A DNA stretch of 64,000 nucleotides, from IMG/VR virus record IMGVR_UViG_3300042292_001068; one strand, written 5' to 3'. Below, one piece after another: positions 1-56,548 of this stretch. A program made the position numbers and the translations under genes. The stretch's first letter is position 1; every line of letters starts with the position of its first letter. The notes beneath the pieces are model-generated. The model saw only the letters and a program-made list of their open reading frames with translations. It was not told where the DNA came from and searched no databases. The DNA comes from an uncultured virus (IMG/VR IMGVR_UViG_3300042292_001068). Lineage: Duplodnaviria; Heunggongvirae; Uroviricota; Caudoviricetes.

Positions 1-2
1 TT

Positions 3-1130
3 CAAGGTTTATTGGAAGAAGAATACGATAATGTTGAAGGCGAATTAGATTTAATCGAAGATGCCCAAATGCAGTTGTATGGTGGTGGTTCAAGTTTTGA
101 AGGTGAAGCAGAAGATACTCGTAAAGTACAATCGGGAAAAAACCTTGCTTGTAGAACAGGATGTGCAGGTAAACACCCATTCAATAAAACAAAAAGACAA
201 GCGTGTGAAGATGAATGTGATAAAAAGTTCAAATCTTCGGGAAAACAAGAACGCAGAAGGGATGAAAGAGAAGAAAGAGAAAGTGCAAGAAAAGAATTTC
301 GTGGCGATAAAAAAGATTGTAAAGCAAAATTAAAAAGTGGCGAATTACAAAAATGGCAATATAAAGAATGTCTTAAAAAAGAACGAAAAGATAAGCGTTC
401 AGATATTAAAGAAGCAGGTGGTGGTATTGGAACACGAATTTGGAGAGCAACTGCCGTTGTTAATCCATTACTTGCATTAGGTAGAGGTGGAGTATTAATT
501 TTGGTTGGGGATAATACTTGGGGATTTGCTACACGATTAGCACCTGCGTTATTGCCCGATGCCGAAGCAAAAGAATTATTTAAACCCGAAGCGATTGAAA
601 AAGCCAAAAAAGGTTGGAAAAAAGTTGCTAATGGTTATCGTAATATGGGTGGTGATGATGCTAAATTAAAAAGCAAAGTTATTCAAGGATATAAGAAAAA
701 ACCATATAAGGTTTCTAAAAAATCGGGATTTGATGGAGAAGATATTTATGAGTTTTCAGAAGTTGCAGGTGTTGATGATGCAGTAGTAATAGCAGGTGCA
801 GTTACAACAGGTCTTTCTGCATTGGCAGGATTGGTTTCAGCATTTACAAAAGCAGGTGGTGAGAAAAATCCTTACAAGGATGATAAAGCACCCGATGATT
901 ATAAAAATGCACTTGCAGAAGGAACTATTGAAGGAAGTCCTGTAACAGATGCAAAAGCACCTGTATTGAATGATAAGGGTGAGTGGACAGAACCAAGCAC
1001 AGGTAAAGTAATTGACCCAATCACAGGTAAATATAAAGACACTATTTTTGGTTTAAATAAATGGTTGGCTATTGGTATTGGAGTTGCAGGAGTTGTAGGA
1101 TTATATTATATTTTTAAAGGAAAAAAATAA
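3..1130 (+). CDS. Putative virion membrane protein, 5'-truncated at the window edge; Cys/Lys-rich domain, two F[ED]G motifs, C-terminal TM
   Basis: Frame is open from base 3 (QGLLEEEY...); SSFEG and SGFDG; C-terminal WLAIGIGVAGVVGLYYIFKGKK. Confidence 0.7.
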   Translation, partial: QGLLEEEYDNVEGELDLIEDAQMQLYGGGSSFEGEAEDTRKVQSGKNLACRTGCAGKHPFNKTKRQACEDECDKKFKSSGKQERRRDEREERESARKEFRGDKKDCKAKLKSGELQKWQYKECLKKERKDKRSDIKEAGGGIGTRIWRATAVVNPLLALGRGGVLILVGDNTWGFATRLAPALLPDAEAKELFKPEAIEKAKKGWKKVANGYRNMGGDDAKLKSKVIQGYKKKPYKVSKKSGFDGEDIYEFSEVAGVDDAVVIAGAVTTGLSALAGLVSAFTKAGGEKNPYKDDKAPDDYKNALAEGTIEGSPVTDAKAPVLNDKGEWTEPSTGKVIDPITGKYKDTIFGLNKWLAIGIGVAGVVGLYYIFKGKK

Positions 1131-1140
1131 AACATTGGAT

Positions 1141-1950
1141 ATGGAGATAGATATTCCATCTAACTACCATTCCTTTCAACTTAATATCACGCTTGACACA
1201 AAAGAATTAAGTAGAATTAGAATAGTAGCATTAGACCCAAATAAACCTGCATCGAAATATGTTGATAGGGTTGGTAAACTTATGGGGAAAAGAACTTTTG
1301 AATTAAAGTTTCCTGTTTCGCCTAAAAAGTTGAAAATCGTAATTTACAATGTTGCAAATGGTAATTTACCTTATGGGGAAGATGATACATTTTCTATTTC
1401 TGATATGAAAGTAGAACCTTTACCACAATACGATGTATGGTGGAATAAGGACACTCAAAACTTTTACAATTTCGCAGTAGAATTTAGCCAAAACGCAGGT
1501 ATTTTATCGGCAGGGGAACAAAAGCCACATATTTATCGAAGTGATGATAATAAATTCACTATTGATTATTATAACAATATCGTAGATAAAAAAACGAATA
1601 AATTATTAACTACACCTGCTCGTATTGGACACAATACAGGCATTATCGAAGTAAGTAAGAATAAGTTTATGCAATACACTATTCCGATGCGTTTAGTGAT
1701 ACTATTGCACGAATTTTCGCATAAATATCTTAATCCTAAAATTGATAAGCCAATCAGTTACGAAACAGGTGCAGATATTCAAGGACTTTATATTTATTTG
1801 GGCAAGGGTTGGTCGCCTTATGAAGCACATAAAACATTCCTACAAGTGTTTAGAAATGCAAATAATGAACCTAACCATAAAAGGTACAAGATTATTAATG
1901 ATTTCATTTCTAAATACGAAAAAGGGCAAATTTCCAAACAGAAAAAATAA
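1141..1950 (+). CDS. HExxH zinc-metallopeptidase-like protein
   Basis: ILLHEFSHKY followed by E-TGAD (zincin-like third ligand); ATG at 1141 preferred over TTG at 1135. Confidence 0.5.
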   Translation: MEIDIPSNYHSFQLNITLDTKELSRIRIVALDPNKPASKYVDRVGKLMGKRTFELKFPVSPKKLKIVIYNVANGNLPYGEDDTFSISDMKVEPLPQYDVWWNKDTQNFYNFAVEFSQNAGILSAGEQKPHIYRSDDNKFTIDYYNNIVDKKTNKLLTTPARIGHNTGIIEVSKNKFMQYTIPMRLVILLHEFSHKYLNPKIDKPISYETGADIQGLYIYLGKGWSPYEAHKTFLQVFRNANNEPNHKRYKIINDFISKYEKGQISKQKK

Positions 1951-1956
1951 TGCTCT

Positions 1957-4506
1957 ATGGAAAAAAATGTTCAAGAATTATTAAAAGATAAAAATGAAGA
2001 TGTAGTTCAATTCAATTTTGAGAACAACACTTCAAGTCCTGTTGCTATTGATTTATTCGATACTGCATCTTTATTAACTATTCCCACAAGTGGAACACAA
2101 CAAACAACTTATACCCCTTCAAACGATTTATTACCAACATTACCCCCAAGTTTATTTGCACAAAATCAAAACAACGGAACTTTTATCGCTTCCGATTTAG
2201 TTTCACCTGTTTTACGATTATTAAATACTACTACGAACACGAATGAAAGTGAATTTGATAATTCTATTGGGTTTAATTTGGGTGATGTTTATTCAATAGT
2301 GATACAACCCGATGGTAAAATACTTGTTGGTGGTTCTTTTTTCCAATATAAAGGTTTAACTGAAAATTTAATTATTCGATTAAACTCCGATGGTTCAAAA
2401 GATTTGACATTTGATAATTCTATTGGTTTTAATAGTGCAGTTTATTCAATAGCGATACAACCCGATGGTAAAATACTTATGGGTGGTTCATTTACAACAT
2501 ATAAAGGATTAACTGAAAATCGTATTATTCGATTAAATACAGATGGCACAAAAGATTTAACATTTGATAATTCAAATGCCTTTAATAATAATGTGGAACG
2601 ATTAGCATTACAACCCGATGGTAAAATAATTTGTGGTGGTGGATTTACACAATACAAAGGTATAACAGAAAATTATATTATCCGATTAAATTCAGATGGA
2701 ACAAAAGATTTAACATTCGATAATTCTATTGGATTTAATTTTCAAGTTTTTTCAATAGCGATACAACCCGATGGTAAAATACTTGTTGGTGGTGCATTTT
2801 CAACTTACAAAGGGGTAACAGAAAATTGTATTATTCGATTAAATTCAGATGGCACAAAAGATTTGACATTCGATAACTCTATTGGATTTGATAGTGCAGT
2901 TTATTCAATAGCGATACAACCCGATGGTAAAATACTTGTTGGTGGTTTTTTTACACAATATAAAGGTGTATCTGCAAATAAAATTATCCGATTAAATTCA
3001 GATGGCACAAAAGATTTGACATTTGATAATTCTATTGGGTTTAATAGTTTGGTTTATTCAATAGCGATACAACCCGATGGTAAAATACTTTGTAATGGTG
3101 ATTTTACAACATATAAAGGTATAACCGAAAATTGTATTATTCGATTAAATTCAGATGGCACAAAAGATTTGACATTTGATAATTCTATTGGATTTGATAG
3201 TGCAGTTTATTCACCAATAGCCATTCAATCCGATGGGGATATATTTTGTGGTGGAAATTTTACAACATACAAAGGATATACAAATAATGGAATAATTAAA
3301 TTAAATTCAGATGGTGGTAGTGCTTCCACTTTAAATATAGGTGGTGTAGGTGGAAATTTTAATGATATAATATATAATTCAAATAATAATGTATTCTACG
3401 GAATAAATGGTAATGATTTATATGTTATTAATTCAGATGGTCAATCAATACAAAATATATTCGCATTAGGTGGAATATCAATCACATATAATTCAAATAA
3501 CAATTATTTATACATATTACGAGGATTAACAATAAGAGTATTTGATTGTGCTACAAATTTGATAGTAACAAATATAAGTTTAGGTGGGGGTAGTTCTTCC
3601 TTTTTATCAGAAGTTACTCCTTCAAATGAAATTTACTATTTTGATAATACTTTTAATTTATTACAAAAGATTAATTGTTTAACAAATACACTTGTTCCAA
3701 TAAATATTTCCTTACCTAATATATTTACATCAAATGGATTGCCTTATTACAATGGTTATTTGTATATATATAGTAATTCAAGTAATATAATTGATATTGT
3801 TGATACCAATACAGACACATATTTTAATTCAATTACAATACCTGCTTTATATACATTTAACCCATTATATTCAGCGATAAATCCTATAACGAATCAATTA
3901 TTTATTACTGACTTTAATTTAACAAGACAATACGCAATAATTGATTTGCCAACAAACACATTAGTTTCAGTAAATTCATTAGGTGGAGTTGGTGGAACAT
4001 ACGGAGTGATATATAATTCATTAACGGATTCTATGTATATAAGTGGTTCATTATTTTCGATAGTTACATTTACGGCTACACCATTCTTTATTGGTGGTTC
4101 TACCAATTATAATACATTCGTAAATAACTTGAATTTTGAGCCGATATTTATTGATGAAATTCGTATTTTAACTCAAAACCTAACGCAGTTAAATAACCAA
4201 GTTCAGTTTACTAAAATTGATTCAAATGGTAATCAGATATTTTTTGGGGAATTTCCAATTAACAAAATTGATATAGACCAAAATAATAATATCGCAGAGT
4301 TAAAACTCAATGGTTTGGTTTTCGATGGTCGTACATACATAAATCAATATGTAATTAACCCAAATCAAATTGTTAGTTTTGAGATTTATTACAAGCAATT
4401 AGATAGGTTTAGTGCAACGCCTACTTTCCCTATATTCTTCAAGCCGAAAGTTCAGTTAAAAGAATATATTAGAAAAGATTACAATAATTACGATGTTGAA
4501 ATGTAA
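1957..4506 (+). CDS. Putative spike/receptor-binding protein with 7 delta-60 (DUF5122-type) repeats plus a second beta-propeller
   Basis: 7x (I/L)Q(P/S)DG(K/D)I..GG.F...IIRLNSDG.KDLTF; N- and C-termini shared with the next two ORFs. Confidence 0.7.
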   Translation: MEKNVQELLKDKNEDVVQFNFENNTSSPVAIDLFDTASLLTIPTSGTQQTTYTPSNDLLPTLPPSLFAQNQNNGTFIASDLVSPVLRLLNTTTNTNESEFDNSIGFNLGDVYSIVIQPDGKILVGGSFFQYKGLTENLIIRLNSDGSKDLTFDNSIGFNSAVYSIAIQPDGKILMGGSFTTYKGLTENRIIRLNTDGTKDLTFDNSNAFNNNVERLALQPDGKIICGGGFTQYKGITENYIIRLNSDGTKDLTFDNSIGFNFQVFSIAIQPDGKILVGGAFSTYKGVTENCIIRLNSDGTKDLTFDNSIGFDSAVYSIAIQPDGKILVGGFFTQYKGVSANKIIRLNSDGTKDLTFDNSIGFNSLVYSIAIQPDGKILCNGDFTTYKGITENCIIRLNSDGTKDLTFDNSIGFDSAVYSPIAIQSDGDIFCGGNFTTYKGYTNNGIIKLNSDGGSASTLNIGGVGGNFNDIIYNSNNNVFYGINGNDLYVINSDGQSIQNIFALGGISITYNSNNNYLYILRGLTIRVFDCATNLIVTNISLGGGSSSFLSEVTPSNEIYYFDNTFNLLQKINCLTNTLVPINISLPNIFTSNGLPYYNGYLYIYSNSSNIIDIVDTNTDTYFNSITIPALYTFNPLYSAINPITNQLFITDFNLTRQYAIIDLPTNTLVSVNSLGGVGGTYGVIYNSLTDSMYISGSLFSIVTFTATPFFIGGSTNYNTFVNNLNFEPIFIDEIRILTQNLTQLNNQVQFTKIDSNGNQIFFGEFPINKIDIDQNNNIAELKLNGLVFDGRTYINQYVINPNQIVSFEIYYKQLDRFSATPTFPIFFKPKVQLKEYIRKDYNNYDVEM
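2250..3315 (+). repeat. Coding tandem repeat of about 153 bp (delta-60 units)
   Basis: Recurrent cgattaaattcagatggcacaaaagatttgacatttgataattctattgg. Confidence 0.85.
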
Positions 4507-5972
4507 TGGAAGAAAATATACAGAAAATATTAAATGAAAAAGACGAAAATGTAGTTCAGTTCAATGTAACTAACACTACATCAAGTCCTGTATTTATAGA
4601 TTTATTTGATAGTGCTAATTTAAGTCCTGTTGCTAATTCTGTGGTTTATTCAAGTTTGCCTAATACACCAACTTCAAGTTTTGGAACATTAGCGTATCAA
4701 TATCTCTCAATTAATCCTAATAATGGATATTTATATGCTACTGATGGTAGTAATTTATGTCAAGTATTTGATACTAATAATGGGAATGTACTTGTTACGA
4801 ATATAATTTTTCCAACGGCAAGTGTTATTCAATCCTGCTATAATTCTATTGACAATACTTTATATTTTGTGGATAGTTTTGGTTTTATTTATGTTGTAAA
4901 TGCTAACACAAATGCAATAACCACAACTATACCCTATACAGGTGGTGCTAATGCTATACTATATATTCCGAATACTAATTCTATATATTTATCAATAACT
5001 TTAAGTACAATTCGTATTAATTGTTCTACAAACACAATATCGCCAACAACATTATTGCCATACGATGATTTTGCTTTTAATTCAACAAATGGATTAGTTT
5101 ATGCAGTTGAAAATTCTTTTGGAACATTTGTAGTAATAAATCCTTTTACTGATATAATAATACAAACGATATTCATAAGTACCGCTACTACAATAGGTAT
5201 TAATTCAAACATCAATACTCCCTATGCTTATATTTCAGATATTATAACAGGCGATATTTATATTTATAATTGGAACACAGGAAATTCATTTTTTGGCACT
5301 TTAATTCCGAGTGTTGGAAATATAGGAAGAAGCGTTTATGATTCGTTTACAAACAGGGTTTATTTTGGAACAAACACAGGTAATTTATTGATTATTAATT
5401 CAGACAATACATTTCAAACATCTTTTATTTCTTTATCCTTCTTATTGACAGAGGTAATAAATCCTAATCTAAATTTATTATATACTGCTACTCCATTTAC
5501 GAATAACATATTTCAAATTACAACATTAGGAATAACTGCAACACCTTATTATATTTCGGGTTCAGCAAATTATAATGCTTTTGTAAATAACTTGAATAAT
5601 GAACCTGTGTTTATTCAGATGATTAGATTGCTTGTTCAAAATCAAAATCAACTTACAAATGAATTACAATTAACTACGATTGATTCAAATGGTAATCAGA
5701 TATTTATGCCGAATTTCCCTATTAATGAAGTTAGTGCATATCAGCAACAAGGAAACATAGGTGAAATAACATTAAAAGATATTGTTTTCGATGGTAGAAC
5801 ATACATTAATCAATATCAATTAAACCCGAATGAATCGTTGTCATTTGAAATATATTACAAGCAATTAAATTTGCCTTCTGCAACACCTACATACCCTATA
5901 TTCTTCAAGCCGAAAGTTCAATTAAAAGAGTATATTAGAAAAGATTATTCAAATTATGATGTTGAAATGTAA
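4506..5972 (+). CDS. Paralogous spike-like protein with a YVTN/YncE-like beta-propeller and no delta-60 insert
   Basis: Shared termini (VVQFN..N.TSSPV.IDLFD; FFKPKVQLKEYIRKDY.NYDVEM); YNS..N.LY repeats; TAATG overlap with the preceding gene. Confidence 0.65.
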   Translation: MEENIQKILNEKDENVVQFNVTNTTSSPVFIDLFDSANLSPVANSVVYSSLPNTPTSSFGTLAYQYLSINPNNGYLYATDGSNLCQVFDTNNGNVLVTNIIFPTASVIQSCYNSIDNTLYFVDSFGFIYVVNANTNAITTTIPYTGGANAILYIPNTNSIYLSITLSTIRINCSTNTISPTTLLPYDDFAFNSTNGLVYAVENSFGTFVVINPFTDIIIQTIFISTATTIGINSNINTPYAYISDIITGDIYIYNWNTGNSFFGTLIPSVGNIGRSVYDSFTNRVYFGTNTGNLLIINSDNTFQTSFISLSFLLTEVINPNLNLLYTATPFTNNIFQITTLGITATPYYISGSANYNAFVNNLNNEPVFIQMIRLLVQNQNQLTNELQLTTIDSNGNQIFMPNFPINEVSAYQQQGNIGEITLKDIVFDGRTYINQYQLNPNESLSFEIYYKQLNLPSATPTYPIFFKPKVQLKEYIRKDYSNYDVEM

Positions 5973-8584
5973 TGGAAGAAAATGTTCAAGAATTATTAAA
6001 AGACAAAAATGAAGATATAGTTCAATTCAATTTTGAGAACAATACTTCAAGTCCTGTGGCGATTGATTTATTCGATACGGCATCTTTATTAACTATTCCT
6101 ACAAGTGGAAATACAACAAATACATATAGTTCATCTACCGATTTAATACCTTCTTTACCACCAAGTATTTTTTCTTTCAATCCTACAAATGGATTGATAA
6201 TATCAACAGACCCAACTACCGAAGAAATTAGATTAGTAGATACAATTAATAATACCACTCCAAATAATTTTGATAACACTCTTGGATTTGATTCAGCCGT
6301 AACAACATTGGTTATTCAACCCGATGGTAAAATGCTCGTTGGTGGTCAATTTATATTTTACAAAACATTTTCTAATAATCGTATTATTCGATTAAATTCA
6401 GATGGAACAAAAGATTTGACATTTGATAATTCTATCGGTTTTAATGGTCAATTAGCAGGAATGGTATTACAACCCGATGGAAAAATAATTTGTGGTGGTT
6501 TTTTTACAACATACAAAGGTGTATCTGAAAATAGAATAATCCGATTAAATTCAGATGGAACAAAAGATTTGACATTTGATAATTCTATTGGTTTTGATAA
6601 TGGTGTAGATATTATAGAAATACAACCCGATGGAAAAATACTTGTCGGTGGTGCATTTACAACATACAAAGGATTAGCAGAAGTTAGAATTATTCGATTA
6701 AATTCAGATGGAACAAAAGATTTAACATTTGATAATTCTATTGGATTTACAGGTGGTAATGTTCTTGAAATTAAAATACAATCAGATGGAAAAATACTTG
6801 TTGGTGGTACTTTTACATCATACAAAGGATTAACAGAAAATTATATAATTCGATTAAATTCAGATGGAACAAAAGATTTAACATTTGATAACTCTATCGG
6901 TTTTGATTTGAATGTTAATACAATTACAATTCAATCCGATGGAAAAATACTTGTTGGTGGATTATTTACAACATACAAAGGATTAACTGAAAATCGTATT
7001 ATTCGATTAAATTCAGATGGTTCAAAAGATTTGACATTTGATAATTCTATCGGTTTTGGTATTGGAGTTGTTGGATTACAAAAAGTATTATTACAACCCG
7101 ATGGTAAAATAGTATGTGGTGGTTCATTTACAACATACAAAGGATTAACATATCGAAGAATAATTCGATTAAATACAGATGGTAGTATTGACATAACATT
7201 TAATCCTGCATTTGGCTATCAAGGTGGTTCAGTTAATGATATTTCATTATTGAATGATGGAAGTTTAATTATGGTTGGTTTTTTCGATTCATTTAATAAT
7301 TTCCTAAATGCAAGAATATCAAAATTAGATTCCAACGGAAATTCACAAGCAATTTTACAAACAGGTAACAAAAATCGTGATTTAGCATATTGTTCATCAA
7401 ATAATAGATTTTACCTATCTCCAACAACTAATTATAAAGCAAATATAATTTCGGGAAATGGTGATTTTCTTATTGGCACTCCCATTACATTACCTACTTT
7501 CGATACAAGAAGTTATTCTATTGAATATAATGTGAATAATAATAATATGTATTATTTATGTAAGGATATTGTTTTATTAAATTCTTTTATCACCATTGTT
7601 GATTGTTCAATAGATACGATTATATCAACAATACCATTACCTAATTATGATATTTCTTATGCCTTATCAAATTTAACATTATTAAATACGATGTATTTTT
7701 TTGATAATACAACAGGATTTCTTCAAAAAATAGATTGTGTTAGTAATACATTGGTTTTAATTAATTTATCATTACCAAATATCACATCAAACATATCTTC
7801 ATTAAATTATAATTCAACAAATGGATTGCTTTATATAATGACTTCAAATAGTGGTGTAATTGATGTTATTGATACGAATACAGATACATATTTAACTTCA
7901 ATTACAATACCTTCTACATATTCATTTCAGTCGAATAGTTCAGCAATAAATCCTTTAACTAACGAATTATTCATTACTGATGCAAATGTCATAAATCCTA
8001 AACAATTCGCAGTAATTAATCTAAATAATAATTCGCTTGTTTCGGTAAATTCAATGGGTGGTATTGGTGCAACATACGGAGTGATATATAATTCATTGAC
8101 AAACTCAATGTATATTAGTGGTTCATTGTTCTCTGTTGTTACATTTAATGCTACCCCATTCTTTATTGGTGGTTCAACGAATTATAACACATTCGTAAAT
8201 AACCTAAATTTTGAACCTGTAATGATTCAAGAAATTAGGATATTAACTCAAAATCAAACGCAATTATACAACCAAGTTCAGTTTACAAAAATTGATTCAA
8301 ATGGTAATCAGATATTCTTTCCCGAATTTCCAATTACAAAAGTTGATTCTTTTCAAGCACAAGGTAATATCGCAGGATTAAAATTAAATGGTTTAGTTTT
8401 CGATGGTCGTACATACATAAATCAATATGTAATTAACCCAAGTCAAATTGTTAGTTTTGAAATAATATACAAGCAATTAGACAGGTTTAGTGCGACACCT
8501 ACTTTCCCTATATTCTTTAAGCCGAAAATTCAGTTAAAAGAATATATTAGAAAAGATTACAATAATTATGATGTCGAAATGTGA
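5972..8584 (+). CDS. Third paralogous spike-like protein with 7 delta-60 repeats
   Basis: Same architecture as 1957-4506. Confidence 0.7.
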   Translation: MEENVQELLKDKNEDIVQFNFENNTSSPVAIDLFDTASLLTIPTSGNTTNTYSSSTDLIPSLPPSIFSFNPTNGLIISTDPTTEEIRLVDTINNTTPNNFDNTLGFDSAVTTLVIQPDGKMLVGGQFIFYKTFSNNRIIRLNSDGTKDLTFDNSIGFNGQLAGMVLQPDGKIICGGFFTTYKGVSENRIIRLNSDGTKDLTFDNSIGFDNGVDIIEIQPDGKILVGGAFTTYKGLAEVRIIRLNSDGTKDLTFDNSIGFTGGNVLEIKIQSDGKILVGGTFTSYKGLTENYIIRLNSDGTKDLTFDNSIGFDLNVNTITIQSDGKILVGGLFTTYKGLTENRIIRLNSDGSKDLTFDNSIGFGIGVVGLQKVLLQPDGKIVCGGSFTTYKGLTYRRIIRLNTDGSIDITFNPAFGYQGGSVNDISLLNDGSLIMVGFFDSFNNFLNARISKLDSNGNSQAILQTGNKNRDLAYCSSNNRFYLSPTTNYKANIISGNGDFLIGTPITLPTFDTRSYSIEYNVNNNNMYYLCKDIVLLNSFITIVDCSIDTIISTIPLPNYDISYALSNLTLLNTMYFFDNTTGFLQKIDCVSNTLVLINLSLPNITSNISSLNYNSTNGLLYIMTSNSGVIDVIDTNTDTYLTSITIPSTYSFQSNSSAINPLTNELFITDANVINPKQFAVINLNNNSLVSVNSMGGIGATYGVIYNSLTNSMYISGSLFSVVTFNATPFFIGGSTNYNTFVNNLNFEPVMIQEIRILTQNQTQLYNQVQFTKIDSNGNQIFFPEFPITKVDSFQAQGNIAGLKLNGLVFDGRTYINQYVINPSQIVSFEIIYKQLDRFSATPTFPIFFKPKIQLKEYIRKDYNNYDVEM
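6265..7335 (+). repeat. Coding tandem repeat of about 153 bp (delta-60 units)
   Basis: Recurrent cgattaaattcagatggaacaaaagatttgacatttgataattctat. Confidence 0.85.
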
Positions 8585-8648
8585 TTGAATATTAAATAAA
8601 ATAACCAAAAAAAAAAGATTAAATAATGATTGAATTAAAAAAAAGTAT

Positions 8649-8656
8649 TATTTTTG
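8649..8656 (+). promoter_or_regulatory. Possible Bacteroidota-type -7 box
   Basis: TATTTTTG (TAnnTTTG) in the intergenic gap before 8828/8992. Confidence 0.3.
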
Positions 8657-8827
8657 ACATTGAACAAAGATATTTCTTAATTAATAAAATTAATGTAAAA
8701 TTCGGGAAAACCCTGTACTATTGGGATTTCTATACATTATTTTATTTCAATCAACAAAATTTAATTACGATTTAATTACCTTGAATAAGCGTATAATTAT
8801 TGCTTATTTAATTAATTTTTTGAATTT

Positions 8828-8950
8828 ATGAATACAAATAGAATAATTAACATATCTTTTTTCGCAACACTAATTGCAGTTGTGGGGATAATGTCTTATA
8901 CACAAGGTAAAGTAATTCGTACAGAATTAAAAAAACAATGGGATATATAA
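8828..8950 (+). CDS. Small single-TM protein (40 aa, not in ORF track)
   Basis: MNTNRIINISFFATLIAVVGIMSYTQGKVIRTELKKQWDI. Confidence 0.55.
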   Translation: MNTNRIINISFFATLIAVVGIMSYTQGKVIRTELKKQWDI

Positions 8951-8991
8951 TAACAACATATCATTAAAAACAAAAATAAAAAACAAAAATT

Positions 8992-9711
8992 ATGGCAAAG
9001 AGATTATCACACTCGACAGACAGAACTACTTTGGTAGATGGATGTGGAACAATTTTGAAAACTAACCGATTGAAAGGTGGTTATAGATTGGTAAAACGCA
9101 AAGCAGGTACAAAGTCATCTGCAACTGCAACGGCAACTGCACCAAGCAAAAGAGGTCGTAAACCATCTGTAAAAGCAACTGCAACGGCAACTGCACCAAG
9201 CACAAGAGGTCGTAAGTCATCTGCAACTGCAACGGCAACTGCACCAAGCACAAGAGGTCGTAAACCATCTGTAAAAGCACCTGTAATGGCAACCGCACCA
9301 AGCAAAAGAGGTCGTAAGCCATCTGTAAAAGCACCTGTAATGGCAACCGCACCAAGCAAAAGAGGTCGTAAGCCATCTGTAAAAGCACCTGTAATCGCAA
9401 CTGCACCAAAAGGTAAAAGAGGTCGCCCTGCATTGGCAAAAGCAACTGCACCTGTAATGGCAACTGCACCAAAAGGTAAAAGAGGTCGCCCTGCATTGGC
9501 AAAAGCAACTGCACCTGTAATGGCAACTGCACCAAAAGGTAAAAGAGGTCGCCCTGCATTGGCAAAAGTAACTGCACCTGTAATCGCACCTAAAAAGCGT
9601 AGAGGTGGTAAAAAAGCAAGTACATCTGCAAAAGCGATGAAACCATCTGCGAAAGCACCTGTAAAAGCAACTTCAAAAGGTAGAGGTCGTAGAGCAACTG
9701 CAAAAGCATAA
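8992..9711 (+). CDS. Histone H1-like K/A/P/T-rich DNA-condensing protein with AT-hook-like repeats
   Basis: 9 tandem units with (K/T)RGRK(P/S) or KRGRP cores; almost no acidic residues. Confidence 0.7.
   Translation: MAKRLSHSTDRTTLVDGCGTILKTNRLKGGYRLVKRKAGTKSSATATATAPSKRGRKPSVKATATATAPSTRGRKSSATATATAPSTRGRKPSVKAPVMATAPSKRGRKPSVKAPVMATAPSKRGRKPSVKAPVIATAPKGKRGRPALAKATAPVMATAPKGKRGRPALAKATAPVMATAPKGKRGRPALAKVTAPVIAPKKRRGGKKASTSAKAMKPSAKAPVKATSKGRGRRATAKA
9110..9595 (+). repeat. Coding tandem repeat (48-60 bp units)
   Basis: gcaactgcacc...agaggtcg repeated. Confidence 0.85.
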
Positions 9712-9737
9712 TTATTAAATTATAAAAAACAGAAGAA

Positions 9738-10721
9738 ATGACTAAAACACAGAAAATACTTATTGCTATTGGTGTTGGTGTTGGTGTTGCATATATTTAT
9801 AAGAGGTATTATAAAAAAGGCAAATCAACAACAGGAACAACTGCAACAAGCACGACAAAAGAAGCACAAGGAACATTCACATTACCCGAAGAATCCGTTG
9901 CAGATAATTTAAGCAGAGAGGAAAAGGAAGAATTTATTTTAGATAATGTTTCTGCAAATCCACAAGAAGTATCTTCGGGTTTTGAAGGTACTCGTTTTGT
10001 TTGGAATCCGACATTAGAAAGAATGTACCCTGTTGGAACAATTCAAGAAGGACAAGAACCTACTTTTGGTGAAATATATAATTCAGCAGAAGGTGATGTT
10101 GTTGCCGATATTCCTAAATCAGTAGAAAATGCAGAAGTTTCTTTGAAGGACTTAAATGACCAAGAATTAGAATTGCTTTATCGTATTGCAAAAACAATGC
10201 GTAATTCACCTTCTATTATGTCAGAAGAAGATGCCGTTAAAGAAATGGGTGTAACAAATCCTAACATAATTAAAATTGTTCGTCAAAAGTTAAAAAAACG
10301 ATTGAATGACATCAAGATTATGAAGAAGGATGCTAATTGGAACGCAAAGTGGACTGAACGAAAAGAGAAGCGTAAAAAACGCAGAAATGAGTTCAAAGAA
10401 AGAATGGGTTTTGATAAAGATAGATTTGACAAAGTAATTGCAAAAAAATGTGGTCGTAAACCACGAAAAGGTCAAGTAGCACAATATAAAAAATGTGTGG
10501 AAACTATCGCAGATGCTATGCGTTCAAAAATCAAAAGCGATATTCGTGCAGAAGTTTCAAATGCACCTGTATCTGTAAAAGATGATATTAACAATCGCAG
10601 ACAAAAATCTTTCGCTAAACAAATGACCAATCGTTCAACAGGTGGTATTTATGGTGGCAATAGATGGGATGGTGAATCTAATTCACAAATTGAAAATTTA
10701 GTTGATAAAGGTTTAGTTTAA
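9738..10721 (+). CDS. Signal-anchor membrane protein (SGFEG motif, CGRKP..C motif)
   Basis: N-terminal ILIAIGVGVGVAYIYKRYYKK. Confidence 0.7.
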   Translation: MTKTQKILIAIGVGVGVAYIYKRYYKKGKSTTGTTATSTTKEAQGTFTLPEESVADNLSREEKEEFILDNVSANPQEVSSGFEGTRFVWNPTLERMYPVGTIQEGQEPTFGEIYNSAEGDVVADIPKSVENAEVSLKDLNDQELELLYRIAKTMRNSPSIMSEEDAVKEMGVTNPNIIKIVRQKLKKRLNDIKIMKKDANWNAKWTERKEKRKKRRNEFKERMGFDKDRFDKVIAKKCGRKPRKGQVAQYKKCVETIADAMRSKIKSDIRAEVSNAPVSVKDDINNRRQKSFAKQMTNRSTGGIYGGNRWDGESNSQIENLVDKGLV

Positions 10722-10732
10722 TAATTATAACT

Positions 10733-11059
10733 ATGAAAATAAATGCTAAAACATTTGCAGGAATTGGATTAGGTTTAGTCGCAGGATATTTTTTGTTTAA
10801 AAATAAAGACAAGAAGTTCTTATATATTGGTGGAACAGGGTTAGCAGGTGGAATACTTGCTAACCTTCTTCTTAACCGAGATTCAAAGAAAAAGCAAGTA
10901 ACCTTATCTACTAAAAACTATATTCAAAGTGCAGAGGATGAATTATTGGATGATGAAACAGGTGATGTTTCTATGGTAGAAGTACCTACAATTTATCCAC
11001 TTAATGAACCTACATCTGTATCAGAGAATTTTGACATTGATTTAGGATTGCCACAATAA
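10733..11059 (+). CDS. Two-TM membrane protein with acidic tail
   Basis: Two Gly-rich hydrophobic segments; ends ENFDIDLGLPQ. Confidence 0.7.
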   Translation: MKINAKTFAGIGLGLVAGYFLFKNKDKKFLYIGGTGLAGGILANLLLNRDSKKKQVTLSTKNYIQSAEDELLDDETGDVSMVEVPTIYPLNEPTSVSENFDIDLGLPQ

Positions 11060-11067
11060 TTAAAATT

Positions 11068-11481
11068 ATGAAATTAGACCCATCAAAAACGATACCAACG
11101 GCATCTTCAAAATCTGAAAATTGGATTCAATGGCATAAGGACTTGAAAAAGATTTTTGGAAAAAAGAAAGCCAATTCAATATGGCTCTATGCTTGGGCAA
11201 AAAGAGGTGGAATAAACTCACCTGCCAATACAAGTGGATTAAGAGATTATATGGATGGTCAAGGTGTTGATATTACAACAACTTCTTTGGGTGAATTATC
11301 CGATAGTATTGGAAATGTATTGGATTTTGGTTTTGGTATTGGTAAAGTCATCATAATTGGAAGTATGAGTATTGTAGGTTTAATTTTGATTGGAATTTTA
11401 GTCAAATTATTTAGAAATCCAAATCAGCAATTAAATATAAGTGCATTACCTGTTCCACCACAAATAGGACAACCAAAATAA
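11068..11481 (+). CDS. Hypothetical protein with C-terminal TM
   Basis: VIIIGSMSIVGLILIGILVKLF. Confidence 0.65.
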   Translation: MKLDPSKTIPTASSKSENWIQWHKDLKKIFGKKKANSIWLYAWAKRGGINSPANTSGLRDYMDGQGVDITTTSLGELSDSIGNVLDFGFGIGKVIIIGSMSIVGLILIGILVKLFRNPNQQLNISALPVPPQIGQPK

Positions 11482-11486
11482 TTAAG

Positions 11487-12002
11487 ATGGCAAATACAAA
11501 AGGTAAAATAATTATTGCGAGTGGACTTGTTTTAGTTGCAGGTATTACAACTGCCGTTATTATATCTCATTATCGAAAGAAAAAATACTTGAAACAGATT
11601 TATGATGCAATAAATGACACAACTTCTGAACAAGGACAACAAGCATTATTAACAGAAGAAAATCAATTATTAGGTTCAAATGCTTTCGACCCGAATTTTT
11701 GGAGAAAAACATCGGGAACAAAACCGAATCCAAACCTTTTAATGCCTTCTAAAAATGCAAGGGAAATAGCAACCAAAATATACAATGAAATGGGTGCGAC
11801 AGATGATGAAAAGGCAATAATAAACGAGTTCAAAAAATTAAAAAGTAAAGGGCAAGTTTCACAAGTCGCTTCTGCATATCAAAATACACCTTTAAATTAT
11901 GGAGATATAGGTCGTGATGTAACAGAAGCATTAACAGGTTGGACAGACGATGATACTTATATTACTCAATTAACAACCTACATTAGTAGTTTACCTAATT
12001 AA
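11487..12002 (+). CDS. Signal-anchor protein with an annexin-like repeat
   Basis: N-terminal TM; ATKIYNEMGATDDEKAII...QVSQVASAY resembles the annexin GxGTDE repeat. Confidence 0.5.
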   Translation: MANTKGKIIIASGLVLVAGITTAVIISHYRKKKYLKQIYDAINDTTSEQGQQALLTEENQLLGSNAFDPNFWRKTSGTKPNPNLLMPSKNAREIATKIYNEMGATDDEKAIINEFKKLKSKGQVSQVASAYQNTPLNYGDIGRDVTEALTGWTDDDTYITQLTTYISSLPN

Positions 12003-12003
12003 T

Positions 12004-12723
12004 ATGAATAGAGGACTTAAAATAACATTAATTATAGTTGGTTCACTTGCAGTAGCAGGTGGAGTTACCTTTGCTATTGTAAGAAGTATTCGTAAGAAAA
12101 AAGAGGAAGAAGAAGCACAGAAGAAAGAACTTGAAGAAACTCAACAATTAGAGGAAATTAATACAAATTTAGAGAGCCAACAATCTACACAACAAAGCAA
12201 TAAAGTAATTCCTTTGCGAAATTTAGATAAGGTATTAAATAATACTTTTGCTGAAATTAGAGGGGTTAAATTATATCCTGCAAAAAAATCAAATGACCCT
12301 GCACAAGGGCATCCTTACGCAGAGGGTTTTGCAAATATCCGTGAAACTCCCGAAGTAAATAATGAATCGGCTTGGTATGACCCATTTGATAATCTTTTGG
12401 GTAAAGTAAGTGCAGGTTCAAGTATTGGAACAATATATTCCGAACAATACGATAATATGACACCAAAAATGCGTTGGTTTAAAGTTAAATTAACGAAGAA
12501 AATTGGTGGTGAACAATATGGTTGGGTACGAGGTGATAATGTTACTTTTGTTCCATTCACAAAAAAGAAATCAAGTTTCGAGGGCGACTTCGTACAAAAA
12601 TATAATAATACTTATCAATTAGGTGCAGATGTATTTCCACACTCTAATTGGATGGCAGGTTATACTACTTACGGAAACGATGTAGTTTCTGATTTTGAAG
12701 GTAATTTGGATTTAGATATTTAA
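12004..12723 (+). CDS. Signal-anchor protein with an SH3b-like domain; SSFEG and DFEGNLDLDI tail
   Basis: ANIRETP...WFKVKL...YGWVRGDNV. Confidence 0.55.
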   Translation: MNRGLKITLIIVGSLAVAGGVTFAIVRSIRKKKEEEEAQKKELEETQQLEEINTNLESQQSTQQSNKVIPLRNLDKVLNNTFAEIRGVKLYPAKKSNDPAQGHPYAEGFANIRETPEVNNESAWYDPFDNLLGKVSAGSSIGTIYSEQYDNMTPKMRWFKVKLTKKIGGEQYGWVRGDNVTFVPFTKKKSSFEGDFVQKYNNTYQLGADVFPHSNWMAGYTTYGNDVVSDFEGNLDLDI

Positions 12724-12744
12724 TAAACTACTAAATAAAAAAAA

Positions 12745-13797
12745 ATGGCAGATTTAATTACGCTTCAAGGTACGGCACAACATACAGGAAAAAAAGTTAC
12801 AGGATATAAATTCCCCGACAACTTAAATGACTTAAAATTTCCTTTTAAATTAATTTGGCATCCAAATTACACACCTATTTTGAGAGGTAGCGACAATATT
12901 AGTCAAGTAAATATACCTGCATCAAAAGAAATTGTATTTGTTAAAAAAGAGGGTGAAAAATCAAAACAAAACGAAAAATTAATCACAAAAGAAGGTTATA
13001 TTTTAAATATTTCAAAAGTTGATAAAAGTAAACTTTTAATATCTCCCGATAAAATAATTTCAGATACAATTCCTAATATACCTGTAAGTGTTACAAAAGC
13101 ACCTACATCAACATCAACATCAAATTCTACATTAGAGGAAGATTTAAACAATTCACCACTCGGTAAAACGGCACGAAAAATTCAAATTGGATTTTCAGTA
13201 GTTGGTTGGGGTGTGTTTGGTATTTTGGCTTATAAGTTTTGGAATAAATCAATGACTTGGAAAGTAATGCTTTCTGTTTTTGGTGCGTATAACCTTTATA
13301 ATACATACAAGATATTTAGTAAACCTGCATTAAAAGTTAGTGGTGGTTCTGATTCAAATACAGGAACAGGAACAACCACAGGAACAACAACACCAAAAGT
13401 AACAACAGGAACAACAAATAATTTAACGAAATCTCAAAAAATAGATTTGATAATTAAAAATCAAAGTGGTAGTGAACCTGTGGATGCTGATGAAGTTAAT
13501 AATTCAAAAGCATTTTTAAATACTCTTAATGATGCAGAATTAACTATTTGGATTCCTTTATCGAAAGCATTGAAAGATACAGAAATATCAAAAGCAGGTG
13601 AAAGTGGAGATATGCGACAATTATATGGTTTACTCAAATCAAAATATGGATTAAATCAAAAAGAAGTTGAGGAACAAATGAAAAAAATGGGTGAATTTTT
13701 AATGGGTGGTGTTGAACAAGCATTACAAGAAGGTTTTACTAATCAAAATCAAAGTGCTTTCAGTAATTTTGAAAGTAGTTTAAATTTAGATTTATAA
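12745..13797 (+). CDS. Membrane protein with two central TMs; NFESSLNLDL tail
   Basis: Hydrophobic hairpin at about aa 148-190; T/G-rich linker. Confidence 0.65.
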   Translation: MADLITLQGTAQHTGKKVTGYKFPDNLNDLKFPFKLIWHPNYTPILRGSDNISQVNIPASKEIVFVKKEGEKSKQNEKLITKEGYILNISKVDKSKLLISPDKIISDTIPNIPVSVTKAPTSTSTSNSTLEEDLNNSPLGKTARKIQIGFSVVGWGVFGILAYKFWNKSMTWKVMLSVFGAYNLYNTYKIFSKPALKVSGGSDSNTGTGTTTGTTTPKVTTGTTNNLTKSQKIDLIIKNQSGSEPVDADEVNNSKAFLNTLNDAELTIWIPLSKALKDTEISKAGESGDMRQLYGLLKSKYGLNQKEVEEQMKKMGEFLMGGVEQALQEGFTNQNQSAFSNFESSLNLDL

Positions 13798-13837
13798 TAA
13801 AAAAAAATAGTAAAAAAAAATAGTAAAAAAAAATATT

Positions 13838-14803
13838 ATGGCAACAACAGGAAAAGCAGGAAAAAAAGGTGGTTCAAAAATGATTTGGATTATTGGTGGA
13901 CTAATAGTAATTGCAGGTGGTATTGGTGCATATTTTCTATTAAGAAAACCGAAAGATGAAAGTGCAGGTGATGATAAACCGAAAGATGATGATAAGCCAA
14001 AAGACGATGACAAAAAACCTTCGGGTTCGGGTTCGGGTTCGGGTTCGGGTTCGGGTTCGGGAAGTGTGTCATATACTGCCCCTGCTGAATTAAATACAAC
14101 CGATAAGATTAAAGCGTTCCAAGATTGGATGGATAAAGAAGGTAAAGGTTGGATTAACAAAGATGGTAAATGGGTGCTTTTAAATAAAGGTGCAGGTTAC
14201 GGAACTTATGGTAAAAATACTGATGCAGTTTGGAAAGTATATGGTAAAAATTATTTGGAGAGTGTGAAAGCAGGTACAAACACAAACACGAATACAAATA
14301 CAAATACAAATACACCTACGACTGCACTATCAAAAGATATTAATACAATTATTAAATCTTCAACAGGAACGAAAGCCGATGCAACATATTTATCAAAAGT
14401 AAATGCTGATTTTGTAAGTAAATGGGCAAAAGCCGTAACAAATAAGAAAAGAGCATTTCTTTGGGCAAATCAATTTTACCGAACAAAAACAGGTGATAAA
14501 ATTTTAGAATATAATCCGATTGGAAAAGTATATTATGCTTCAAAAACAGGTGAGTTCGCAAAATATGAAGCAAATAATAAGGCGACTGCGATTAGAATAA
14601 CCAAAGGCACTAAATTAGGAAAAGCAGGTGCAGTAGATTTTGATGGTAAATATGTATTTATTTATTTCCCCGAAAGAGCAGGAAATTCTAAATGGCTTTA
14701 TTCATCTGCAATTACAAGTACAAAGCCATCATCAAGTTTTGATGGAATAACTGATGAAATAGAATTTGCAAACTTTGACAATAACCTTGACTTAAACTTA
14801 TAA
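13838..14803 (+). CDS. Signal-anchor protein with (SG)n and (TN)n linkers; SSFDG and NFDNNLDLNL tail
   Basis: N-terminal TM; IKAFQDW..YGKNT segment resembles a PG-binding domain. Confidence 0.65.
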   Translation: MATTGKAGKKGGSKMIWIIGGLIVIAGGIGAYFLLRKPKDESAGDDKPKDDDKPKDDDKKPSGSGSGSGSGSGSGSVSYTAPAELNTTDKIKAFQDWMDKEGKGWINKDGKWVLLNKGAGYGTYGKNTDAVWKVYGKNYLESVKAGTNTNTNTNTNTNTPTTALSKDINTIIKSSTGTKADATYLSKVNADFVSKWAKAVTNKKRAFLWANQFYRTKTGDKILEYNPIGKVYYASKTGEFAKYEANNKATAIRITKGTKLGKAGAVDFDGKYVFIYFPERAGNSKWLYSSAITSTKPSSSFDGITDEIEFANFDNNLDLNL

Positions 14804-14806
14804 AAA

Positions 14807-15328
14807 ATGGAAAAGAAAACAATTTATTACATAGTCGGTGGTATTGCCGTATTAGGTATCGGATATTATTTGTGGAATAAAAGCAAAAAAACTGCAACAG
14901 AAAAAGAAGCAACGGATGATACTGCTACAAAAGATGTAGAAACGGATGCTACTGCAACTGATAAATCTGCAACTGCAACTGCAACTAAACCTGCTACTGC
15001 TACTGCTACTGCTACTGCTACTCCAAATAAATCTGCAACCACACCTGCACCTAAAAAATTAACTGCACAAGAATTAGAATCTAAATTGCAAAGTGGTTGT
15101 GGTAAAAAACCTAAATTGAAAAAGAATAAAATTAAATATGAACAATGCCGTGCTGATTTGACTGCTAAATTAAAAAGTCAAGGATTGGTAGCATTTGATG
15201 GTTCTTATTATTTTGAGGGAGTAGCAGAGAAATATGCAGAAAATAACATTAGAGAACAATCATTTGCAGAACAAGTTATTAATCGTGAAGATGGTAGAAT
15301 GTTCGCAGGAAGTGTTTATAACGATTAA
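14807..15328 (+). CDS. Signal-anchor protein, T/A-rich stalk, CGKKP..C motif, AFDG/YFEG
   Basis: N-terminal IYYIVGGIAVLGIGYYLW. Confidence 0.7.
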   Translation: MEKKTIYYIVGGIAVLGIGYYLWNKSKKTATEKEATDDTATKDVETDATATDKSATATATKPATATATATATPNKSATTPAPKKLTAQELESKLQSGCGKKPKLKKNKIKYEQCRADLTAKLKSQGLVAFDGSYYFEGVAEKYAENNIREQSFAEQVINREDGRMFAGSVYND

Positions 15329-15350
15329 ATAACAATTAAAAAACGAAATA

Positions 15351-15713: not shown

Positions 15714-15728
15714 TAAAACCAAATAAAA

Positions 15729-15866: not shown

Positions 15867-15873
15867 AAAGATT

Positions 15874-16377: not shown

Positions 16378-16392
16378 AATAATAAATGAATT

Positions 16393-42800: not shown

Positions 42801-43541
42801 TTATTCTTCGGAATTATCGTCTGAATTATCTTCGGATTTAAAATTGTGGTAATTTTTAATTATGTCCTCAATATCACTTGTATTATAATCAAACTCATTT
42901 TTAAATGTTGTACGAAATTCATCAGAATCTATCGTAACATCTGTTACCTCAATTTTTTTGTATGAATCCATTTCGCACTCAAAATCTTCAATTTGTGTAA
43001 ATGAAATAGTAGTGTCAATATTCCTTACAGATGTATCAACAATTTCTGTAATTAATTCAAACAATTCTCTTGTCATTAATTTAACTAATAATATTGTTTC
43101 TGTGGTATTTCTATTTTGGTTAATCCATTGTAAAAACCTATCGTATTCAAATGAAAAGTTAGAACAGAAATAATCGCTTATATCAAGCGTTACATTTTCT
43201 AATTCAACTTCGCAAGAATAATTAATTCTTAAATCATAATCGTCAATTTCGCCACTACCACTAAATGTTTGGGTGCGAAAATATTCAGCACCACAATCAG
43301 TAATAAATTCATCAATTAAATCAATCAATGAATCAATCATTTCTTGCGTAATTGTTTCATCTGAATTTCCTTCTTGCATTTTAATTTTAAGCAAATCAAA
43401 TTCATTAATTAATTTTTCCAATTCGGAACGCAAAGAATTAATTTCATTCGTTGAATTGTTGTTCAATGCTTCTTCCGTGTTGTTCATACGAATTACAAGT
43501 GCATTAATCTTGTCCTCTAAATTTTGAAATTGTGTGTTCAT
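42801..43541 (-). CDS. Acidic protein with N-terminal coiled coil and an internal duplication
   Basis: IDDYDLRINYSCEVELENVTLD versus IEDFECEMDSYKKIEVTDVTID. Confidence 0.55.
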   Translation of the reverse strand: MNTQFQNLEDKINALVIRMNNTEEALNNNSTNEINSLRSELEKLINEFDLLKIKMQEGNSDETITQEMIDSLIDLIDEFITDCGAEYFRTQTFSGSGEIDDYDLRINYSCEVELENVTLDISDYFCSNFSFEYDRFLQWINQNRNTTETILLVKLMTRELFELITEIVDTSVRNIDTTISFTQIEDFECEMDSYKKIEVTDVTIDSDEFRTTFKNEFDYNTSDIEDIIKNYHNFKSEDNSDDNSEE

Positions 43542-55939: not shown

Positions 55940-56548
55940 CTATTTAATTATTGTTGAAGGGTAAATCGTAATTATAATTTCCGTTTCGGGCATTAAATAT
56001 GATAATCTTAATTGCAATTCATTGAAAAATTCAATTTTATTATCATCTGTCATAGGAATATCAATTATATCAGATTGTTGTTTATATGCACTAAAATAAT
56101 TACCTACTTGTAATGGTTCTGACTGCATACGCCCATTTGGGTTTGTAATAATTTTATGAAGGCAACAATTTAATTGCTTACTTCTAAATTTAGGATAATC
56201 ACACCAAACTTGAAACCTTAATAATGTAACTTGTTCTTTTGCTTCACTTAAAGCAGATAAATTTCTTAAAAACCTGTTATATTCTACCCCCATTCCACAA
56301 GAATATGCTACTTTATTTTGCTTTTCGTGTTCGTAATTGAATAAATCCACATCGTAGAGTTTTTCATCTGTTAGATTTTTAATGCGAATTTGATAAGGTA
56401 ATAAAGATTCTTTTTTTGGTATATTAAATTCGGAAACCTTAAAGTCAATAATTTCAGTTTTTTCATCTAAAATACTATCTTCTATTATTTTTGGCTGACT
56501 TGAAAATTTAGCCGTTATTTTTTCACCTTTTTTGTTTTTACTTGACAT
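55940..56548 (-). CDS. Uninterrupted paralogue of the split domain of the three spike-like proteins
   Basis: Colinear motif match to the termini of 4506-5972 (DLF, YN.F..NL, QL, NG, SAY.QQ, L.P, IY). Confidence 0.6.
   Translation of the reverse strand: MSSKNKKGEKITAKFSSQPKIIEDSILDEKTEIIDFKVSEFNIPKKESLLPYQIRIKNLTDEKLYDVDLFNYEHEKQNKVAYSCGMGVEYNRFLRNLSALSEAKEQVTLLRFQVWCDYPKFRSKQLNCCLHKIITNPNGRMQSEPLQVGNYFSAYKQQSDIIDIPMTDDNKIEFFNELQLRLSYLMPETEIIITIYPSTIIK

Follow-up and report, generated by a model that had tools for sequence, protein, structure and literature searches.

Nested β-propellers within a split jelly-roll domain in three tandem late genes of an uncultured freshwater phage: candidate host-adhesion proteins

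The window analysed here is the whole 64,000-nucleotide (nt) stretch of the IMG/VR virus record IMGVR_UViG_3300042292_001068. It is AT-rich (~30% G+C), densely coding and phage-like, and its source is an uncultured freshwater phage. Close to its start, on the + strand, lie three genes, P0001 (1957..4506; 849 residues), P0002 (4506..5972; 488 residues) and P0003 (5972..8584; 870 residues), which are co-oriented and have overlapping stop and start codons, the start of P0002 sharing one base with the stop of P0001. Full-length identity between P0001 and P0003 is 63%. P0002 has in common with them its first ~36–45 and its last ~140 residues, together with a less similar middle region. A first-pass annotation, made from the sequence, had proposed that these genes encode β-propellers inserted into a domain whose intact paralogue is the product of P0004, a gene of 202 codons at 55940..56548 on the − strand; all four open reading frames (ORFs) were confirmed where it had placed them. 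The core of P0004 spans residues ~50–202 (nt 55943–56401), and residues 1–45, rich in Lys and Ser, are predicted to be disordered.

The shared parts of the three tandem genes, an N-terminal segment of ~36–45 residues and a C-terminal segment of ~110 residues, jointly match P0004. Pairwise comparison of P0002 with P0004 by BLASTP was only marginal (E 0.036, 26% over 87 residues), and profiles of the two families were therefore built. The 80 relatives of P0004, none of which contains a Pfam domain, are ~200 residues long, and a 45-sequence alignment (A1) represents this family. The 122 relatives of P0002 have either ~485 residues or ~845 residues with DUF5122 repeats; the ~485-residue forms are represented by a 49-sequence alignment (A2). 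Comparison of A2 with A1 by hhalign matched residues 353–425 of P0002 to 87–168 of P0004 with a probability of 90.5–93.4% (E 1.3e-6 to 2.5e-7), and the N-terminal pair, 18–35 of P0002 and 53–71 of P0004, appeared as a colinear alternative alignment with an E value of 0.052 by itself. When the insert columns (~37–347) were cut, a local alignment of positions 18 to 113/120 with 53 to 167 spanned the junction, with a probability of 95.4–95.9% and E values of 5.5e-9 to 1.8e-8; the global alignment of the trimmed A2 with A1 gave 95.5–96.3%. The corresponding null runs returned E values of 0.38 for a reversed A1 and 7.2e-4 for the best of 20 block-shuffles, against 8.6e-8 for the real alignment.

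The split of the base in all three genes, which the first-pass annotation had staked on a significant match between the joined termini and P0004, is borne out by these alignments across the junction (probability 95–96%). The six sequence pairs that it had quoted all reappear in the profile alignments, and the spacing of the two halves is ~15 residues in P0004 and ~316 residues in P0002, much as it had estimated. A hidden Markov model (HMM) built from uninterrupted members of the family (A3), run with HMMER against the six-frame set of the window, detected P0002 at 8.7e-11 and P0003 at 1.5e-5, and an HMM of the trimmed A2 matched P0004 across the junction at 8.9e-4. The joined-termini search of the window had also been put forward as a route to the major capsid gene; it recovered P0004. 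We conclude that, at the level of sequence profiles, the split domain is homologous to its uninterrupted paralogues.

Structure predictions were made for both forms with AlphaFold. The P0002 model has a predicted local distance difference test (pLDDT) score of 83.9 and a predicted template modelling (pTM) score of 0.72; in the P0004 model (AlphaFold2, AF2) the core has a pLDDT of ~85–93. The strands of the P0002 base are at residues 14–23 and 29–33, before the propeller, and after it at 348–352, a helix, 368–377, a second helix, 387–392, 398–403, 418–428, 432–439 and 444–453. The P0004 model has strands at 52–58, 64–68 and 80–84, a helix, a strand at 105–115, a second helix and strands at 129–135, 141–147, 161–165, 178–185 and 190–199. 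The order of strands and helices is the same in both: two strands, the site of the insert, a strand, a helix, a strand, a helix and five strands. The N-terminal piece (residues 1–46) and the C-terminal piece (residues 340–488) of P0002 were also co-folded as separate chains. Their score was 0.59 (0.59, 0.60 and 0.48 in individual runs), compared with 0.01 for the best of three controls; the runs agree in at least 79% of contacts and the partner pLDDT is at least 59. In the calibration, whose counts are only approximate here because the alignment was self-made, 116 of 157 solved complexes scored at the mark or above, as did two of 215 mismatched pairs, and scores of 0.60 or below include 18 of the 157 solved complexes and both passing mismatches. 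The earlier expectation that the pieces fold together is thus weakly supported. Overall, the split is established for homology and for secondary-structure topology, and co-folding of the two pieces is likely.

The predicted models support a generic jelly roll as the fold class of the base. The AF2 model is a jelly-roll-type β-sandwich, and nearly all of its Foldseek and VIA matches are jelly rolls: capsid proteins of satellite, plant, picorna-like and nepo-type viruses; P5 of PRD1, the capsid-entry chain 6q5u_O of PR772 and the major capsid protein of FLiP; and phage cement proteins (KHP40, Pam1, GP4). Also among them are carbohydrate-binding modules (CBMs), nucleoplasmins and, in the list of 50 from VIA, two podophage tail-hub chains. 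The best scores were a Foldseek E value of 7e-4, with template modelling (TM) scores of 0.2–0.43, and a VIA Z-score of 6.8 (root-mean-square deviation (rmsd) 3.9, 116 residues aligned), and scores up to these values (Z 6.8, E 7e-4) are rated by the tool itself as background for a common fold. At the sequence level, the A3 profile had no match among PDB sequences at E≤10, P0002, P0004 and the related proteins P0204 and P0205 (described below) had no match for the base in Pfam, PHROGs or NCBIfam, and the ESM Atlas gave no usable match for P0004. The further suggestion in the first-pass annotation, that the base is capsid- or penton-like, is therefore not supported: its structural scores are at background, and it has no sequence match to known families. 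Two other assignments were considered for the C-terminal region and set aside: a C-terminal sorting domain of the type IX secretion system (T9SS), since Pfam gave no match and the fold requires the N-terminus, and a C-terminal intramolecular chaperone, since the C part has a homologue that exists as a domain by itself.

In P0002 a single seven-bladed propeller of the YVTN/YncE type occupies the loop of the base that follows strand 2. The N part of the jelly roll comprises residues 1–36 (nt 4506–4613), the propeller residues ~47–342 (nt 4644–5531) and the C part residues 348–455 (nt 5547–5870); a conserved tail modelled with low confidence, residues 456–488 (nt 5871–5969), completes the chain. 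The modelled propeller has 29 strands between residues 48 and 339 and finds its best structural match in Escherichia coli YncE (3vgz_A; Z 32.6, rmsd 2.0, 277 residues). In profile searches it matched the YVTN S-layer protein 1l0q (E 2.1e-28) and YncE (E 1.3e-16), and a homologue at locus L001 passes the Pfam thresholds for Lactonase and YNCE. Propellers fill the matches in fold searches with the whole P0002 model, and these searches do not inform on the base.

P0001 and P0003 contain a second insertion inside the first. Mapping of the profile of the 488-residue type onto P0001 took two pieces, profile positions 1–94 at residues 1–94 and profile positions 78–488 at residues 438–843, and P0003 behaved alike, so that ~345 extra residues sit after blade 1 of the YVTN propeller. 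These residues form seven 51-residue delta-60/DUF5122 units with anchor positions recurring every 51 residues. DUF5122 (PF17164) was matched with E 8.5e-92, over seven stretches in each protein, the scores being 301.5 and 287.9 bits (cut-off 27); for delta-60 (TIGR02608) they were 213.6 and 186.7 bits (cut-off 76.5). Within P0001 the units are encoded by 153-nt DNA repeats that are 81–87% identical. The delta-60 array thus lies inside the propeller in both proteins, as the first-pass annotation had it. Along P0001, the jelly-roll N part (residues 1–45, nt 1957–2091) is followed by YVTN blade 1 (residues 46–98, nt 2092–2250), the array of seven 51-residue units (residues ~99–455, nt 2251–3321), YVTN blades 2–7 (residues ~456–705, nt 3322–4071), the jelly-roll C part (residues ~706–815, nt 4072–4401) and a conserved tail (residues 816–849, nt 4402–4503). 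P0003 has the same layout, with its N part at residues 1–45 (nt 5972–6106), the delta-60 array at ~98–460 (nt 6263–7351), YVTN blades at ~461–728 (nt 7352–8155), the C part at ~729–836 (nt 8156–8479) and the tail at 837–870 (nt 8480–8581). As read from the sequences, the nesting therefore has three levels: sandwich, propeller and delta-60 array. The inserted heads are bona fide members of the YVTN/YncE and delta-60 (TIGR02608, DUF5122) families; what sets them apart is that they are nested in one another and in a phage jelly-roll domain. Neither the delta-60/DUF5122 family nor, in a receptor-binding role, the YVTN family turned up in keyword searches of the phage literature.

Conservation along these proteins is markedly uneven. 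Among 48 homologues the mean identity to P0002 is 66% in the N part, 31% in the propeller, 74% in the C part and 61% in the tail, and P0001 and P0003 are 96% identical in the N part, 42–64% in the propeller region, 85% in the C part and 97% in the tail. The gene ends are conserved as DNA, the 5′ 222 nt and the 3′ 234 nt being 78–90% identical. Within the late block to which they belong, mean pairwise identity over five loci is lowest for the propeller genes (42%) and highest for the P0204-type gene and a gene for a 271-residue HExxH protein (88–89%). Conserved ends around a variable middle are the signature of host-recognition proteins in which the docking module stays constant.

Related metagenome loci outside the window share its gene order and vary in the number of propeller genes. 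There is one gene of ~485–495 codons at L004, L005, L007, L008 and L013 and one of the long type (847 residues) at L012; L002 and L010 have two propeller genes, and the window has three. The insert at the common site also varies among relatives, with lengths of about 10, 310, 660 and 2,050 residues overall. It amounts to ~10 residues in P0205 (254 residues), ~325 in a 574-residue protein of the IMG/VR record G004, ~630, forming two YVTN propellers, in P0312 (1064 residues), and ~2,050, forming YVTN and DUF5122 propellers, in a 2433-residue protein of L023 whose domain halves are its first 32 residues and residues 2088–2205. The first-pass picture of a conserved base under variable heads, used for display, accordingly holds as regards the identities of 66% and 74% against 31%, the variation in copy number from one to three, and the single loop that takes inserts of ~10 to ~2,050 residues. 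The giant L023 gene (L023:2175-9473) is followed directly by that for the uninterrupted copy P0205 (L023:9476-10237), and the same arrangement recurs at L024:3797-11098 and 11098-11862.

A third, uninterrupted subfamily, the P0204 type, consists of proteins of 253–271 residues whose N-terminus is acidic and whose C-terminal tail is basic; in related loci its gene lies ~6 kb upstream of the propeller genes, a position just outside the window. It matches the P0004 family with a probability of 96.7% (E 4.5e-10) and the trimmed P0002 family with one of 83.5% (E 8e-6). Among 1.84 billion representatives the A3-type profile found 663 clusters (50% identity) at E≤1e-3, mostly single domains of 150–250 residues, together with six tandem doubles (P0207, P0270, P0278, P0293, P0326 and P0334) and one triple (P0338), 361–574 residues in length. 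None of 88 representatives tested matched a PHROG, and none of 16 long representatives contained a Pfam family. 'Short homologues' of P0002 with 274–346 residues were rejected as minimal forms, being truncated fragments that lack the N-terminus, and a search for longer close relatives produced only DUF5122 forms of 855–871 residues and no further head type in the close family. Within the window, a 246-residue ORF at 42801..43541 (−) matches the C part of the profile weakly (E 0.002 in the six-frame set, 2e-5 in a five-protein set) and is possibly a further member of the jelly-roll family; it has a coiled-coil-like N-terminal part and an acidic tail.

The interpretation that we favour, with moderate confidence, is that the three tandem late genes encode host-adhesion proteins of the virion surface in which a conserved base carries variable propeller heads. 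The base is predicted to be a jelly-roll sandwich of ~150 residues, to which the N-terminus contributes two strands and the C-terminal ~110 residues the remainder. After strand 2 the chain would leave the base to form the seven-bladed YVTN/YncE-type propeller; in P0001 and P0003 it would leave this propeller in turn, after blade 1, to form the second, delta-60/DUF5122 propeller before returning to complete the base. Together with the conserved 33-residue C-terminal tail, the base would dock the protein on the particle, and the exposed propellers would bind structures of the host surface. Because both gene ends are conserved as DNA, heads could be exchanged or duplicated by recombination between them, and such recombination would give rise to the one to three copies and the differing heads of related phages. 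Partial precedents exist. In staphylococcal phage phi11, β-propellers are reported to act as receptor-binding platforms (PMC4901313), and the evolved Dit proteins of siphophages of Gram-positive bacteria bear host-binding modules, one or two per protein, that are inserted in the loops of a galectin-type sandwich and add adhesion (PMC7291167). The evolved Dit resembles the proteins described here as a conserved sandwich with loop-inserted binding modules; it differs from them in its N-terminal ring domain and in its modules, which are BppA-type CBMs and not propellers. Neither Pfam nor PHROGs assigned a Dit family here.

Several observations weigh against this interpretation. The N and C pieces of P0002 gave a weak pass in the co-fold, the structural matches of the base (Z≤6.8) single out no functional class, and P0001 was unmatched by the A3 HMM at E≤10 in the six-frame set of the window; its match to the trimmed family profile, at 1.7e-76, is that of a member of the family from which the profile was made. 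Among the neighbours in the late block and in related loci there are no PHROG or Pfam matches to structural proteins, and it is on indirect grounds that we infer presence in the virion. The location of P0004 among early-type genes on the opposite strand extends the domain beyond the structural module. YncE-type propellers, moreover, also bind DNA and other ligands, and their fold carries no information about the ligand.

The closest known design is not a penton but the nozzle or tail hub of podophages. In the SU10 nozzle the platform sandwich is assembled from the two ends of the chain; between these sits a seven-bladed propeller, which has extra domains inserted between its blades 2 and 3 (PMC9509320). 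In Pa223 gp59, residues 2–46 and 403–512 form one adaptor-binding domain around the propeller (bioRxiv 10.1101/2025.06.11.659172). The likeness extends to a platform made of the N-terminal ~45 and the C-terminal ~110 residues with a six- or seven-bladed propeller between, to additional domains between early blades, and to a sandwich that docks on the particle, which in our case is proposed. The three proteins might then be diverged hubs or nozzles (P22 gp10, T7 gp12, SU10, Pa223 gp59), that is, hexameric channels with a split platform seated on an adaptor. The nested topology is the same as that described for SU10 and Pa223 and the size is similar (488 versus 513 residues), the P0004 model matches Pa223 9nwi_Y with Z 5.3 (chain 2..511) and VP1 8zkm_E with Z 5.2 (1..518), and P22 Gp10 entries of BFVD align to the whole P0002 model at ranks 14 and 25 over 553–557 columns. 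However, Z-scores of 5.2–5.3 are no better than those of dozens of unrelated jelly rolls, the TM-scores to the Gp10 entries are 0.29–0.38 with rmsd values of 15–18, and hub chains are absent from the top 50 PDB matches of the whole P0002 model, a list that propellers fill. There is no significant sequence or profile similarity to hubs, and the sandwich scores at background. A hub is a conserved ring encoded by a single-copy gene, whereas here there are one to three variable copies, and variability is greatest (31% identity) in the propeller, the part expected to line the channel; this propeller is clearly similar in sequence to cellular YVTN proteins, as an acquired adhesin module would be. 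The second insert is a delta-60 propeller and not a set of Ig-like nozzle domains, uninterrupted stand-alone bases are common (663 clusters), and no portal or adaptor gene was recognised nearby. On account of the varying copy number, the variability of the propeller and its apparent acquisition from cellular YVTN proteins, we do not file these genes as hubs and consider that identity highly improbable. It is also distinctly unlikely that they encode late proteins that never enter the virion, intracellular or exported, which share a widespread phage sandwich and bear, for example, nucleic-acid- or envelope-binding propellers. The early-type surroundings of P0004, the ranking of E. coli YncE as the best structural match of the propeller and the lack of any structural annotation (PHROG in none of the 88 representatives, Pfam in none of the 16 long ones) would fit such a role. 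Against it stand the conserved ends, hypervariable middle and changing copy number, which are typical of host-recognition genes, the position inside the late block beside its most conserved genes, and the fact that P0001 and P0002 have neither a signal peptide nor a hydrophobic segment.

A particular location on the particle can also be envisaged. The virion could be tailless and contain an internal membrane, with these proteins as its penton-type or capsomer jelly rolls and the P0204 type as its capsid protein; this would be a special case of surface display at a specific and very unusual site, and we judge it unlikely. Vertex proteins of the PRD1–adenovirus type (PRD1 P31/P5, adenovirus penton base, PM2 P1) are similarly built of a single jelly-roll base with exposed host-binding insertions or extensions, the adenovirus penton base having an insertion domain. 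The PRD1 P5 and PR772 chains are among the base matches with Z-scores of only 5–6 and have no sequence relation to it. The top Foldseek matches of the base are nevertheless capsid jelly rolls, some family members consist of two or three jelly rolls in tandem, and the P0204-type gene, the first of the late block, ranks with the best conserved there (88%). Hallmarks of the HK97 lineage were not found: PHROGs for terminase, portal, HK97 capsid or major capsid protein, tube, sheath and tape measure were matched by none of the 88 ORFs of the window, by none of the upstream genes of related loci and by none of the 108 ORFs of at least 110 residues in G004, a 97-kb relative from IMG/VR that is rated 84% complete. 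In G002, a 146-kb IMG/VR record of which 71 of the 108 ORFs of at least 150 residues were covered, the sole hallmark match was a weak one, to phrog_2666 'terminase large subunit'. Pfam Terminase_6N, TerL_ATPase and Phage_capsid were found in none of five related records searched in six frames. (G002 corresponds to L036–L043 and G004 to L046–L051, and all related records are incomplete.) The phrog_2666 match falls on a 284-residue P-loop ATPase encoded in the late block of the distant relatives G002 (106295–107146, Walker A motif GLQGVGKT) and G006, which has sub-threshold matches to HerA/DUF87 (19.5–20.7 bits against a cut-off of 23.2) and, by phmmer, none in the PDB. In addition, a strongly hydrophobic 19-residue segment (Kyte–Doolittle (KD) value of at least 1.9) occurs in 19 of 36 ORFs of the late block, taken as window positions 1–26422 on the + strand, and in six of the other 66 ORFs of the window; 15 of the 19 are N-terminal, within the first ~40 residues. 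Such richness in membrane anchors is unusual for the structural module of a tailed phage, and the trend is weaker in G004 (21/61 versus 11/101) and G002 (21/75 versus 21/188). Set against these points, the contigs that encode the proteins are 100–166 kb long, to our knowledge about ten times the genome of any known tailless phage; the known bacterial members of the PRD1 type have genomes of 10–20 kb. The 284-residue ATPase matches the terminase-named PHROG as well, with an E value of 4e-6, and the ESM Atlas clusters of the 271-residue neighbour are mostly labelled Uroviricota, an automatic label. G002 has a weak match to a 'tail collar fiber' and G004 has matches to 'baseplate hub' and 'lytic tail protein', apparently on lytic or short repeat domains. 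With every related record incomplete and no structural match above background, it is doubtful that these phages form a lineage of large (100–200 kb) freshwater phages with a tailless, membrane-containing jelly-roll capsid on which the propeller genes supply the vertex or capsomer spikes.

The surroundings of the genes are as follows. The propeller genes belong to a late block whose genes share one orientation and whose last members encode peptidoglycan hydrolases, several of them at 18.8–25.1 kb of the window; endolysin or peptidoglycan-hydrolase matches on the + strand are at 18794–19591, 20375–21046, 21046–21861 and 24483–25106, and several of these four genes encode N-terminal hydrophobic segments. 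Directly upstream of the propeller genes at all loci is the gene for the 271-residue protein (1135..1950, +), which shows the highest conservation of the late genes, with a mean identity of 89% over five loci. Its HEFxH motif is invariant in seven of seven aligned homologues, and for this reason we regard the product as a putative Zn metallopeptidase, possibly one associated with the virion. Its neighbours in the ESM Atlas, which include DUF4344 and M48 metallopeptidases with scores below 0.9, gave no function for it. Just downstream of the three genes, an ORF at 8992–9711 (+) contains at least three copies of a 63-nt unit at ~9423–9565, and its homologues vary from 125 to 239 residues between loci.

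The region from ~26 to 53 kb holds RecT, helicase, resolvase and HNH genes, and P0004 is surrounded by early/replication-type genes on the − strand, with a Zn-ribbon gene and a DUF4494 gene (55335–55757). The nearest cultured relatives of the helicase at 40074–41978 (−) are the Bacteroides phages DAC19/20/22/23 and SJC03 (42% identity), which together with the DUF4494 gene indicates a Bacteroidota host; the host of the lineage is probably a member of that phylum. At 51577–53477 (−) and 60179–60763 (+) the window has two nucleotide-sugar epimerase genes and several glycosyltransferase genes, and in related loci glycosyltransferases adjoin the late block directly upstream (for example L004:526-3054); these genes may serve to modify the virion or the host surface. 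Positions 1–20000 of the window had no megablast match, and P0002, P0004 and the 271- and 327-residue neighbours had no tblastn match, in 50,697 phage records. A single-protein scan of IMG/VR gave no match and an alignment-based scan one distant locus. No tRNA genes were found in the window, and the outcome of a promoter and terminator scan was no better than that for shuffled sequence.

The analysis defines a β-sandwich domain family without annotation, spanning the 663 clusters and free of PHROG, Pfam or NCBIfam assignments where these were tested. One loop of this domain tolerates inserts of ten to ~2,000 residues, which makes it a natural display scaffold, and P0001 and P0003 provide a clean example of nesting on three levels: sandwich, propeller, propeller. 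Were the particle indeed tailless and membrane-containing, it would be the first bacterial virus of this type to have a large genome. On the adhesion reading that we favour, the findings point to the host-recognition genes of a group of uncultured, large freshwater phages in which structural genes otherwise defy recognition.

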